A stretch of 49,259 bases of DNA. It comes from a bacterium. Its GTDB lineage: Bacteria > Margulisbacteria > Marinamargulisbacteria > GCA-2716485 > JAYNIM01. The position numbers and the translations under genes are program-made. Each line of letters begins with the position of its first letter. Position 1 is the first letter of the stretch. The notes under the pieces were generated by a model. It was not told where the DNA came from and searched no databases. It was given only the letters and a program-made list of their open reading frames with translations. The stretch is from positions 1-49,259 of the forward strand of contig JAYNIM010000001.1 of NCBI GenBank assembly GCA_038109055.1, written 5' to 3'. Of this stretch, positions 38,170 through 43,247 are shown one piece after another.

Positions 38170-39111
38170 ATGCGCAAGACTATATTTCTTTTTGTTTTAT
38201 TTGTTTGTATTGGGCTAAGCTTTTTTGTTTTAGATTATAATGCTGTTTTTTATAGTGAAGCTCAGCGTATTAAAACGCAGTATGAACAACATTTAACCTC
38301 AAAAGTAACAGATATTTTAAATACATTTTTACCTTCTTCAACGTATAGAGTTGTCGTGAGTGTTAGCTTGGATATGGAAGAGTATAATGTGGAAAAAATT
38401 GTTAACAGACCGCATAAGATTCGTGTTGTTGATGGGGTTGATATTGTTAATAATCGTGTTCCTGTAGATATAGTTGTTCCTGATGTGATTAAAAATCGTG
38501 ATTTATCTATGCCAGGATTTTCTAAACTTATGCCTGATAAAGATTCGTATATTGATATTTATCAATCTCGTAAAAATATGGTACTGCCAGAAACAAAGGT
38601 GGTCTCGAATGAAAAACGTTTCAATGAAAAATTTTTAGTGGATACGGAAACATCACGGCGTGTGATTTCTAAGTATAAGCCACTTTATCAACATGTTTTT
38701 GTTTTACTAAGTGAGGATTCTTCAACTATTATTTCTGACGAGAAATTACAGACTCTTTTGATGAATGGATTGGGGGTTCGTGATGTTAAAGAAAATCGTT
38801 TAATCATTCAACGTTTTCGCTTTCGACTACATAGTAAGTGGTACAAAAAACTATGGGATTTTGCGCATCAGTACAAGACCTATGTGTTTGTTATCTTGGC
38901 TGTATTGGGTGCTATGGTGTTACTTAATATGGTTTATAGAGTGTTACTTGCTTATTTTAAACGACCTAAAGTTGAACAAAAGGATGATGTAAAACCTGAA
39001 CCTCAGCTTAGTCCTGAGGTGACCTTGGAGGATAAGAAGCAGCAATTGTTAGAGTTTGCTAAGTCTGATCCGGATAAGGTCAAGGAGTTGTTGGATATAT
39101 GGATGAAGTAA
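38170..39111 (+). CDS. Truncated FliF-like MS-ring protein (TM, RBM3/beta-collar, TM, FliG-binding helix)
   Basis: YEQHLTSKVTDILNTFL..YRVVVSVSLD..P matches the start of the FliF C-terminal ring domain, and 'LQTLLMNGLG...ENRLIIQRFRF' matches its end. A second TM and a terminal FAKSDPDKVKELLDIWM (dPe.vA.ll..W) follow. About 313 aa. Confidence 0.72.
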   Translation: MRKTIFLFVLFVCIGLSFFVLDYNAVFYSEAQRIKTQYEQHLTSKVTDILNTFLPSSTYRVVVSVSLDMEEYNVEKIVNRPHKIRVVDGVDIVNNRVPVDIVVPDVIKNRDLSMPGFSKLMPDKDSYIDIYQSRKNMVLPETKVVSNEKRFNEKFLVDTETSRRVISKYKPLYQHVFVLLSEDSSTIISDEKLQTLLMNGLGVRDVKENRLIIQRFRFRLHSKWYKKLWDFAHQYKTYVFVILAVLGAMVLLNMVYRVLLAYFKRPKVEQKDDVKPEPQLSPEVTLEDKKQQLLEFAKSDPDKVKELLDIWMK

Positions 39112-40082
39112 GGCATTTTTCAAAAGGGTCAGTTTCGTTAGATGTGTCTAATAACCATCGTAAAGCATTGGGATTTATTTTGTTTTTAGATGAATTTGAA
39201 AAGGGGTTGGGGGATCGTTTTTTGAAATCTCTTCCTTCAGATAAGATGTCTTCTTTATCGAGTATGGTTGAAGATCGACCTTGTTTTTCTGAAGATCAGA
39301 TACAATCGTTGATTGAGGATAGTTATCGTGTGTTAATTGAAAAAAAAGATATGATGGTTAGACCGGAATTTATTGATTCGATTGATTCGGAATCAGAGAA
39401 TCGTGTTCGTTTTAAAGAAGATATTCTTTTAAATAAAAAAAGTTTGTTGCGTGTTTTTCCAACGTCCTTTTTTCAAGAGTTAGCAGATGAAAAATCGTAT
39501 TTAGCTTTGGCATTATTATGTAAATTGGCAACAAAAGAGGATGTTATTGCCTTGCTTCGTTTATTTTCGATAGAAGTATCAGAACAAATTTTATTTTTTT
39601 ATGTCAAAATTAATACGAGCAGTGTTTTATTATTGGATGAATTCACTAGTTTTATGTTAGACCGTTTTGATGAAGAAGAAGAACGCTTGGATGACGGGGA
39701 TAGTAATTTTGAATTAGCGCAGATTTTAGAGCAAAGTTCGCCAGCATTAGTGAAGCGTTTTAAACAACTTGCTGTGGATATTGATTGGAAAGATGTGGAG
39801 TCTAAGATGTTTAAATTGAGTGATTTGAAACATTTAGATTCGGCACAATTAAATCGGGTGTTGGATGTTTTTGTGGATGCGAAAGAATTGGCTGTTTTAT
39901 TGAGTCAGGTGCCTAAAAATGTCTTAAGTCAACTTCAACTTAAGTTGACGGATCGTATTTTGGGGATGGTGGCTGAAGAAGGGGCCTATGTTCAAGGTTT
40001 GGATAAAGCGGCTAAACAGGCGGTTATTTCTAAATTTATTTCTGTTGTTCGAGACATTAAAACATTGGAGGACCCTTCATGA
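39099..40082 (+). CDS. Divergent FliG-like rotor protein
   Basis: N-terminal RKALGFILFL; C-terminal KMFKLSDLKHLD (MFxF-like), ELAVLL, LTDRILGMVAEE (torque-helix R...EE); 327 aa; lies between the fliF-like gene and motA. Confidence 0.72.
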   Translation: MDEVRHFSKGSVSLDVSNNHRKALGFILFLDEFEKGLGDRFLKSLPSDKMSSLSSMVEDRPCFSEDQIQSLIEDSYRVLIEKKDMMVRPEFIDSIDSESENRVRFKEDILLNKKSLLRVFPTSFFQELADEKSYLALALLCKLATKEDVIALLRLFSIEVSEQILFFYVKINTSSVLLLDEFTSFMLDRFDEEEERLDDGDSNFELAQILEQSSPALVKRFKQLAVDIDWKDVESKMFKLSDLKHLDSAQLNRVLDVFVDAKELAVLLSQVPKNVLSQLQLKLTDRILGMVAEEGAYVQGLDKAAKQAVISKFISVVRDIKTLEDPS

Positions 40083-41499: not shown

Positions 41500-42006
41500 A
41501 TGGTGACGTCGATAGTGATGATTCAATTGATGATACATTTATCAGAGTATTTTTCAAAGCAGTTGGGGGTGCCTGTTGTTTTTAAATGGACACAAACAGA
41601 GACCTGTACGTTGGCGTCTATGGATTGTCAAGACGGAGTGGGTTCTTATATTCAGTTGTTTCAGAAAGATGATACGAGGTTAGTATCGATGATTGAACAA
41701 GATATCTTGTCTCATTTATCATCGATGTTTTTGGGCTTGAAGGAACCTGTATTGGGATCTGAAAATTTATTAATGATAGAGAAATTTATGGGGTGGCTTA
41801 TTAATAAACAGCTTTCTTTATACTTAGCAGATCAGGATCATCCTTTGAGTAAGGGAGCTGTTTTACATTCTCCTAAACATATTTATTGTTTTAACGATGA
41901 AGAGTCTGTTGAAATGCTGGCTATTCACGTGTTTTCTGATCAATTGTCTTTGGGGCAGTTTAGGTTATTGCAGAATGTGAAACAGTCTAGGGAGAGATTA
42001 TCATGA
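41500..42006 (+). CDS. FliM middle-domain-like protein (no CheY-binding N-terminus, no SpoA domain)
   Basis: LSEYFSKQLGVPV, SMFLG, LLMIEKFM (cf. lTeIE), SPKHIYCFNDEESV (cf. nP.f.qi..p.e.V); 168 aa; operon context. Confidence 0.55.
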   Translation: MVTSIVMIQLMIHLSEYFSKQLGVPVVFKWTQTETCTLASMDCQDGVGSYIQLFQKDDTRLVSMIEQDILSHLSSMFLGLKEPVLGSENLLMIEKFMGWLINKQLSLYLADQDHPLSKGAVLHSPKHIYCFNDEESVEMLAIHVFSDQLSLGQFRLLQNVKQSRERLS

Positions 42007-43247
42007 AACAATATAAAGTTTTTTTAATGCTAGTTCTTGGTTATTGCTCGACGTTATTTGCCTTACATGTATTGCCGTATAATGACATGCCAAAAAATCA
42101 TTTTGGGATTTCTATTTGGGTTGATACGAATGCCAAAACAGAGTATGAGTTGGGGAGTTCGGATATTATTGGCTATAATACTTTTACTTTTAATTTTTCT
42201 AATGTCTCTTATGGCTTTACGTTACTTCCTTTGGTTATGCCAAAATCGATAGAGGTGAATACAGGGCCGTTGTCCTTTCCGGTTCAATCTGATGTGTTTA
42301 TTCCGCAACGAGAAGCTACTGGTAGTCTTCCTCCGGGTGGAACGCCTGTTACAGTGACGATTCCTGCTGAAGAGGTTGAGTTGGATGGGACGATGACAAG
42401 CATGGGGCAATCAATACAATTGGATGGTACTAAACTACCGATGGAGGGAGTTGTGTTGCCGGTACATAATTTTACCTGGGAGCCCTTTGATTTTTCTTTG
42501 CCATGGCTAAAAAGTGGGGTTCGCATTCAGACTGGATTTTTGAATTTTGGTTTGCCGGATGATCTTATGTCTGAGGATTCCTTTCGTAAATATAATCGTT
42601 ATTTGAAAAAGGCCTATGTGACGTGGCGCTTACAGCCCTTTTATGTGTATCCGTTTTATGTCTATGTGTCTAAATTTAATTTGCATGCTACATCTGATTT
42701 TCAAACGGCGTTTGCTATAAGTTTTGAACGTCAATATGTTCATTTTAAATTAGAATATGAGAAGATTTTGGATAAAGAGGTGTTTTTTGTTGGGATGGAA
42801 TCATATTTATTTTCAGGATTGATTTTTAAATTAGGGGCGTATCCATTAGATAGTTTTAATAAAAAACTTTTGTATCGGCCCAAATATTTTCTTGGTTTTG
42901 AAATTCGATCCGCGATGATTAGTCGATTGATAGAAAAGAAAAAGAATAAAAAACGGGTTCGTAAGCCACTTTATATTGATGATTTTATGTTTTTAGAATT
43001 AGAAAAAGGGTCTTTGGATTATTTTAATATGGATTATCGTTCTGCGATGGTTCGTTATGAGCGAGTGTTGTCAAAGTATCCTAATTTTCCCTTGGTTTTA
43101 GAGCGCTTGGGGAGTATTTATTATGAGTTGGGCCTACATGCTCAAGCACAAAAAAGTTGGGAGGATGCTTTGAAGTATACGCCTGCTAATAAAGATATTC
43201 AGTTTTATTTAAATAAGCTTCGTTCAGAGAAGCCTGTAACACCTTAA
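42003..43247 (+). CDS. Secreted beta-rich (possibly outer-membrane) protein with C-terminal TPR repeats
   Basis: Signal-peptide-like MKQYKVFLMLVLGYCSTLFA; aromatic-rich alternating strands; TPR pattern 'YERVLSKYPN..VLERLGSIYYELG..AQAQKSWEDALKYTP'. Confidence 0.68.
   Translation: MKQYKVFLMLVLGYCSTLFALHVLPYNDMPKNHFGISIWVDTNAKTEYELGSSDIIGYNTFTFNFSNVSYGFTLLPLVMPKSIEVNTGPLSFPVQSDVFIPQREATGSLPPGGTPVTVTIPAEEVELDGTMTSMGQSIQLDGTKLPMEGVVLPVHNFTWEPFDFSLPWLKSGVRIQTGFLNFGLPDDLMSEDSFRKYNRYLKKAYVTWRLQPFYVYPFYVYVSKFNLHATSDFQTAFAISFERQYVHFKLEYEKILDKEVFFVGMESYLFSGLIFKLGAYPLDSFNKKLLYRPKYFLGFEIRSAMISRLIEKKKNKKRVRKPLYIDDFMFLELEKGSLDYFNMDYRSAMVRYERVLSKYPNFPLVLERLGSIYYELGLHAQAQKSWEDALKYTPANKDIQFYLNKLRSEKPVTP

Follow-up and report, generated by a model that had tools for sequence, protein, structure and literature searches.

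The window analysed here, a stretch of 49,259 nucleotides (contig JAYNIM010000001.1, assembly GCA_038109055.1) from a bacterium of the Marinamargulisbacteria, contains at positions 38170-43247 of its plus strand a cassette of six genes. In this order they code for FliF*, FliG, MotA, MotB, FliM* and a predicted outer-membrane barrel with a C-terminal tetratricopeptide repeat (TPR) tail (ORF6), FliF* and FliM* being domain-reduced forms of the flagellar proteins. Taking together homology, domain content, key residues, synteny, phyletic distribution and selection, all of them drawn from sequence, we propose, giving the idea even credence, that these genes constitute a self-contained, one-way, ion-driven rotary engine of the cell envelope with neither a filament nor chemotaxis input. 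More broadly, and tentatively, with credence slightly short of even, we suggest that an ancestral flagellum was split in the Margulisbacteria into a torque-less, filament-less export basal body and multi-copy, one-way, barrel-driving rotary cassettes, the motor core having thereby become a free-standing, reusable engine.

The cassette and the identity of its parts

The six open reading frames (ORFs) fill the interval 38170-43247 with junction gaps of -13, -4, -4, 0 and -4 bp; the first begins 71 bp beyond the end of cysN, and the last converges, with a 4-bp overlap, on the minus-strand gene rnhC. This bears out the preliminary description of this DNA, which had remarked on six genes with overlapping or abutting starts and stops between cysN and rnhC. 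Its observation that the window holds no export, axial or che genes beyond the cassette is likewise sound: a Pfam scan of the 28 other ORFs recovered no further flagellar genes, and E. coli flagellar queries match motA and motB only. No promoter signal above chance was found at the cassette. A foreign origin of the cassette is unsupported, its GC content (35.6%) being close to that of the contig (36.4%), although the window stands at 40.2%.

Single-sequence searches proved too weak for ORF1, ORF2, ORF5 and ORF6, and family alignments were built from relatives. ORF1 (FliF*; 38170..39111, on the plus strand like the other five; 313 amino acids (aa)) displays a transmembrane (TM) helix, an RBM3 domain with a long beta-collar hairpin, a second TM helix, and C-terminal helices at the FliG-binding position. 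Its family profile aligns only to residues 231-559 of Salmonella FliF (PDB 6scn, E 6e-15), with no RBM1 or RBM2. In the AlphaFold2 (AF2) model (pLDDT 75), RBM3 carries two strands of 37-38 residues, the collar spanning 121 aa, and the top 18 Foldseek matches of the model are all FliF. ORF2 (FliG; 39099..40082; 327 aa) is very divergent and retains all three domains: it exceeds the Pfam cut-off for FliG_C (E 6e-5), and its family profile, which contains an E. coli row, aligns with a relative's flagellar FliG over 313 columns at a probability of 99.8. The torque-helix Arg286 and the acidic pair are preserved, and the Gly-Gly hinge is lost.

The stator genes are more readily recognized. MotA (40079..40855; 258 aa; Pfam E 9e-27) scores far better against the NCBIfam models of MotP (E 5e-52) and PomA (E 1e-50) than against TolQ (E 2e-7), and PDB matches, residues and tree place it in the PomA/MotP type; it bears Thr160, Thr187 and Thr188 at the inferred Na+-site positions, Lys at the position of E. 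coli R90 and Val at that of E98. MotB (40852..41499; 215 aa) combines a TM Asp18 with a plug (Pfam MotB_plug) and an OmpA-like peptidoglycan-binding domain, also supported by alignments. Given the plug, the OmpA domain and the preference for PomA/MotP over TolQ/ExbB, the stator is, by its sequence, of the flagellar type and lies outside the ExbBD/TolQR group. FliM* (41500..42006; 168 aa) consists of the FliM middle domain alone: profile positions 3-168 cover that domain end to end in PDB 5x0z (E 2e-9) and match residues 55-223 of E. coli FliM, with neither the CheY-binding N-terminus nor the SpoA domain. One FliM* homologue is labelled Candidatus (Ca.) Margulisiibacteriota. In leave-one-out tests, the profiles pick out the window's ORF1, ORF5 and ORF6 with E 1e-26, 2e-13 and 1e-34, respectively, from 5703 six-frame genome ORFs. 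Thus, Pfam, NCBIfam, the family profiles and the FliF* model with its Foldseek matches agree on the earlier assignments of FliF*, FliG, MotA, MotB and FliM*, and the matches to 6scn 231-559 and to the FliM middle domain uphold the view that the torque parts were retained while RBM1/2, the FliM N-terminus and SpoA were removed.

The sixth gene (42003..43247; 414 aa) had been taken for a secreted TPR protein. The TPR is indeed present at its C-terminus; rather than a plain secreted protein, AF2 and Foldseek point to a 12-stranded outer-membrane barrel. A signal-peptide-like N-terminus precedes, in the model (mean pLDDT 69), 12 strands and then the TPR helices, with a low-confidence outer loop at residues 80-147. 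The top Foldseek neighbours are outer-membrane barrels (PorV, OmpF, FapF, OmpG; TM-scores 0.2-0.35), the first being PorV, a weak match (0.32-0.37) with no counterpart at the sequence level. Assignment of the barrel to YjbH or PorV was also attempted by sequence comparison, which found nothing. Because the strand number is even and alternate turns are short, the model would place the TPR tail in the periplasm. The atlas cluster closest to ORF6 is mostly from Ca. Margulisiibacteriota. A predicted complex of ORF6 (residues 21-410) with the periplasmic part of FliF* (26-222) scored 0.15 against a mark of 0.32 and carries no evidential weight. The outer loop, of ~70 aa and rich in Pro, Thr and Gly (window 42240-42443), is absent from the other nine aligned homologues.

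Key residues, phylogeny and selection

Across the cassettes, the torque-generating surfaces show a distinctive pattern of retention and loss. The equivalent of FliG R281 is basic in 24/24 rows and that of D289 acidic in 23/24, and the Gly-Gly hinge occurs in none of the 24 cassette FliG rows as against 4/4 flagellar ones; substitutions in this hinge are reported to bias or lock the direction of rotation (PMC10372836). In cassette MotA, K/R occupies the R90 position in 19/20 rows and Asp116 is kept in 18/20, and the MotB Asp is retained in all 14 rows. Thr160 and Thr188 of MotA are invariant, with T/S at position 187 in 15/20. The corresponding PomA residues T158, T185 and T186 are tied to Na+ selectivity (PMC10374538), the mapping from PomA to the window's MotA resting on a two-residue offset in the alignment. 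Na+ is probably the driving ion, to judge from these residues.

In the MotA tree, the window's copy falls in a six-row type A clade (support 99/97) nested within a 15-row cassette clade (100/100), which has members from two classes and leaves out the flagellar MotA of G064 (G, C and L numbers are our handles for genomes, contigs and loci); two type B rows lie outside it. Congeneric cassette pairs yield dN/dS values of 0.055-0.224 in 18 of 23 gene pairs, the other five being saturated and none including the window's copy. Hence, the statement that this is not a decaying flagellum stands for the family, because the cassette is conserved and its congeneric copies, the window's excluded, are under purifying selection.

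Distribution of the cassette

We surveyed 132 genomes of the phylum Ca. Margulisiibacteriota, each at least 70% complete and 46 of them from the window's class; since kin are not independent, the genome counts are descriptive. FlhA was detected in 123/132, FliF RBM1/2 in 121/132, FliG_C in 58/132, MotB_plug in 54/132 and flagellin in 15/132. The 54 MotB-positive genomes all lie within the 58 with FliG_C, and 41 of them give no flagellin match. Conversely, 70/132 genomes, including the single-contig G078 and G120, have FlhA with neither FliG_C nor MotB. The FliM* profile matches in 38/132, seven of these matches being weak and falling in ORFs of 326-493 aa, the size of full-length FliM. Within the class, flagellin was found in 1/46 genomes, which has no FliG_C, and CheW in 1/46. 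A further 13 genomes of the phylum are flagellated, with flagellin, a separate canonical FliG, a second FliF and a second FlhA in addition to 4-7 FliG_C copies.

The conservation of six-gene synteny in related genomes, for which the preliminary description had called, was borne out: the complete order recurs, amid different neighbouring genes, in G039, G037, G019, G008 and two metagenome contigs, and in the flagellated relatives G063, G052, G058 and G061 the order seen in the window is joined by a second barrel. Around the top MotA matches, FliF*/FliG/FliM* or fusion genes lie near 16/20 loci. The best 80 of 501 loci in the metagenome scan comprised the two full cassettes just named, one partial cassette and mostly ordinary flagellar operons, many of which run flgD-flgE-motA-motB-fliL-fliM-fliN; the cassette may be viewed as such an operon from which the export and axial genes were cut out. 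A scan of other genome contigs gave six distant MotA loci, at which the queries employed detected no cassette, and word-indexed homologue searches were shallow (16 and 3 matches). For the fused form of the cassette (type C, below), the nearest atlas clusters are mostly from Cloacimonadota, Elusimicrobiota, Bdellovibrionota and Bacteroidota, as judged by cluster membership.

A separate export basal body and paralogous cassettes in the source genome

The source genome (G000; 1.82 Mb, 93% complete) encodes full-length FlhA and FliP outside the window. An export operon comprises flhA, flhB, fliR, fliQ, fliP, fliO, fliN and a FliM-like gene, and a second operon fliK, flgF, flgG, flgA, flgH, flgI, a sigma factor, an ORF at the flgB position, flgC, fliE, fliF and fliG (basal-body loci L033 = G000:C1 511-521 kb and L031 = G000:C2 189-197 kb), with fliI apart from both. 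The absence of export and axial genes thus applies to the window and not to the genome, where gate, FliI, rod and L/P rings are encoded elsewhere. The genome therefore does have the export gate and rod genes expected of a flagellum, though elsewhere, and accompanied there by a FliF of their own and a short FliG. Flagellin, FlgK/L, FliD, FlgD and CheW were not found in this 93% complete genome.

The basal body and the cassette are complementary in domain content. The sole PF01514 (FliF RBM1/2) match of the source genome is a gene other than ORF1 of the cassette; the FliG of the basal body (270 aa) has the N and M domains only, without the torque domain, and the gene after fliF codes for 154-240 aa wherever it was retrieved (14/17 further basal-body loci). 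The FliF collar measures 20-53 residues in the basal body (18/18), 92-124 in flagella (n=4) and 108-215 in FliF* (12/12). This basal body (gate, rod, L/P rings, collar-less FliF and short FliG; L130-L149) is near-universal in the phylum, to judge from FlhA in 123/132 genomes, and in flagellated members it lives on as a second system.

All FliG_C and MotB_plug matches of the source genome fall in three cassettes, the window's and two paralogues. Type B comprises motA, motB, fliF*, fliG, fliM* and two barrel-TPR genes; type C (L035:7012-11052) comprises a TPR protein, a natural FliF*-FliG fusion (475 aa), motA and motB. Two ExbB/TolQ-sized MotA_ExbB matches are separate from the cassettes. Chaperone-usher pilus genes adjoin the type B cassette (L034:4963-16491); chaperone, usher and SCPU-pilin genes also lie inside the type B cassette of G032 (L056, L091) and beside motAB in G011 and G013. 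In G091, a fusion-type cassette is situated ~340 bp upstream of a fliK-fliM-fliN-fliP-flhA operon. A complete export, rod and hook set elsewhere that relies on these rotor genes had earlier been named as telling against a repurposed machine, and the result is divided: gate, rod and rings do exist and the three cassettes are the sole source of FliG_C and MotB, whereas the basal body is equipped with a separate FliF and short FliG, and no filament genes are detectable.

Some further observations concern these loci. Type C versions in flagellated relatives are fused to TPRs (855-911 aa) and stand beside CheY-like genes. In the MotB of the G091 cassette (L066:5307-6020), the OmpA domain is replaced by a LysM domain. 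By eye, the FlgB-, FlgC- and FlgF-like proteins of the source genome (L033:4261-4674, 3806-4261 and 9218-10024) have signal-peptide-like hydrophobic N-termini, and its FlgG and FliE have none. Two orphan FlgF/G-like genes (L127:1165-1974, L147:8215-9078) lie away from the basal-body operon, and one of them could be a short hook protein.

Elsewhere in the window, the region directly upstream of the cassette (27980-38098) is a sulfur assimilation cluster (an Rrf2 regulator, pyridoxal-phosphate enzymes, ThiF and JAB proteins, a sulfite reductase-TusA fusion and cysH/D/N-like genes) that the cassettes of relatives do not have. A 957-aa ORF at 6-2879 carries a C-terminal dual-specificity phosphatase domain, and inspection revealed a tRNA-like sequence on the minus strand between rnhC and recO (about 44190-44275).

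A possible mechanism and its competitors

Briefly, we advance the following plausible mechanism. FliF* would polymerise via RBM3 into a membrane ring bearing a hollow periplasmic beta-collar with no export gate inside. Its C-terminal helices would hold a FliG ring braced by FliM*, against whose torque helix MotA5B2, anchored to peptidoglycan through MotB, might turn. Rotation would be in one direction, since the Gly-Gly hinge, the CheY-binding segment and a chemotaxis system are all missing. The collar would then carry the force through the periplasm and onto the barrel's TPR tail, such that a load at the surface is moved or delivered. As this load we favour an adhesin or a structure resembling a pilus, with which the cell would attach or move over surfaces; the chaperone-usher neighbours offer a thin hint of such an adhesion-related role. 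A symbiont belonging to the class lives inside host cells, joined to the membrane of the host by fimbriae-like links (PMC6784892).

Several observations weigh against this proposal. For the window's copy no close relative turned up, leaving it without a dN/dS value, and its FliG has the longest branch of its tree. An Arg equivalent to FliG R297 is present in 0/24 cassette rows, and Glu occurs at the E98 position of MotA in only 5/20, implying that the face which MotA turns to FliG is remodelled. The barrel part of ORF6 matches no Pfam or PDB sequence family, and the usher association occurs in only a few genomes, the window's copy showing none. What the cassette retains, namely the FliF collar and FliG_C, is just what the basal body is missing. 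Finally, cassette genomes more than 83% complete all carry FlhA; as the four without a FlhA match are 71-83% complete, independence from the export system cannot be shown within the phylum.

The complementary losses of collar and FliG_C are what one would expect if the cassette were an optional torque module of the filament-less basal body, FliF* joining the collar-less FliF so that FliG and MotAB turn the rod. The rod and L/P-ring genes kept by the basal body, the cassettes' place as sole source of FliG_C and MotB in the source genome, the G091 cassette next to an export operon, and a gene order equal to that of flagellar operons minus export and axial genes all fit such an arrangement. We nevertheless consider it, though the strongest of the rivals, rather unlikely, given the 70 genomes that have FlhA without FliG_C or MotB, the barrel/TPR genes that the cassettes bring with them, the several paralogues facing a single basal body per genome, the direct fusion of FliF* to FliG in many copies, and the distance of most cassettes from export genes. 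It is rather improbable that MotAB acts in strokes on an anchored FliF*-FliG scaffold, as in ExbBD-TonB or TolQRA, thereby gating the barrel for uptake or secretion or sensing load: the stator is of the flagellar type with plug and OmpA domain, the source genome has its two separate ExbB/TolQ-sized matches, and the cassette retains an RBM3 of the ring-forming kind, a FliG with its three domains and the charges of the torque helix. This notwithstanding, an outer-membrane barrel partner, the eroded equivalents of MotA E98 and FliG R297, and several paralogues that in small genomes could serve different cargoes would suit it.

A swimming flagellum of atypical kind, with a dispersed motor and an unrecognisable or unassembled filament protein, could be imagined from the export gate, rod, rings, FliK and extra FlgF/G-like genes of a source genome that is only 93% complete. 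It is very improbable in light of the single flagellin-bearing genome of the class, itself without FliG_C, the failure to find FlgD, FliD, FlgK/L or CheW in the source genome, and the separate canonical FliF/FliG and second FlhA of the 13 flagellated relatives. A decaying remnant of a lost flagellum, for which one might cite the low identities between cassette copies (13-28% outside MotAB) and the long branch of the window's FliG, is scarcely credible and largely refuted for the family by six intact, coupled ORFs, an order kept across classes, the low dN/dS values and retention beside complete flagella. The repurposed rotary machine of the preliminary description hence stays the best reading, because the basal body comes with a FliF and short FliG of its own, filament genes were not found, and 70/132 genomes have FlhA without FliG_C or MotB; its rotation and function are a proposal, tempered by the export gate elsewhere in the genome.

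Relationship to known systems

The cassette shares with the flagellar motor core RBM3 and the collar, FliG with N, M and C domains and torque-helix charges, the FliM middle domain, a PomA/MotP-type stator with plug and OmpA domain, and the ancestral fliF-fliG-motA-motB-fliM order. It differs in having no RBM1/2, FliM N-terminus, SpoA, FliN, FliL or Gly-Gly hinge and no export, rod, hook or filament genes, in adding an outer-membrane barrel-TPR protein, and in occurring as several paralogues per genome. Judged by sequence features, it thus has the stator and FliG torque helix of a flagellum, and has not its RBM1/2, switch or filament. To our knowledge, a FliG rotor driven by MotAB has been described only in flagella. 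No published description of the cassette was found in the literature searched, most subscription papers lying outside the search; the supplements of PMC6349859, PMC6784892, PMC12505986 and PMC13277936 may list such genes, the main text of PMC6349859 having no 'flagell' and PMC13277936 no 'Margulis'.

ExbBD-TonB, TolQRA and ZorAB likewise employ a MotAB-family unit outside the flagellum, but no FliF/FliG/FliM rotor is described for them in the available part of PMC12505986, which treats flagellar-type stators as flagellum-associated and there leaves FliF and Margulisbacteria unmentioned. The SpoIIIAG ring of the sporulation channel resembles FliF* (weak matches) as a stand-alone RBM3-like ring with a beta extension. 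It has no FliG or stator and a different role. In type IX secretion and gliding by GldLM with PorV, and in the Myxococcus Agl-Glt machinery, an ion-driven 5:2 motor acts across the periplasm with outer-membrane barrels and TPR proteins; the stator of the cassette, in contrast, is flagellar-type and would face a cytoplasmic FliG ring, and its barrel has no sequence family in common with solved barrels.

Three things are new here: a form, with three paralogues, in which FliF*, FliG and FliM* are unfused; the loss of the hinge; and the division between export and torque across the phylum. Among natural candidates for reconstituting the torque of rotor and stator, the six-gene set is the smallest. 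It would test whether the motor can exist without an export apparatus, with a bearing on flagellum evolution, and it offers a lead on how the cell surface is worked in an uncultured, small-genome phylum known to include symbionts. Export systems of the flagellar kind that have no filament, and injectisomes, such as those of Buchnera and Chlamydia, have kept the export side and lost the torque side. They resemble the separate basal body of the source genome, of which the cassette is the mirror image; if the proposed split is true, the flagellum would have met a third fate in addition to swimming and injection.

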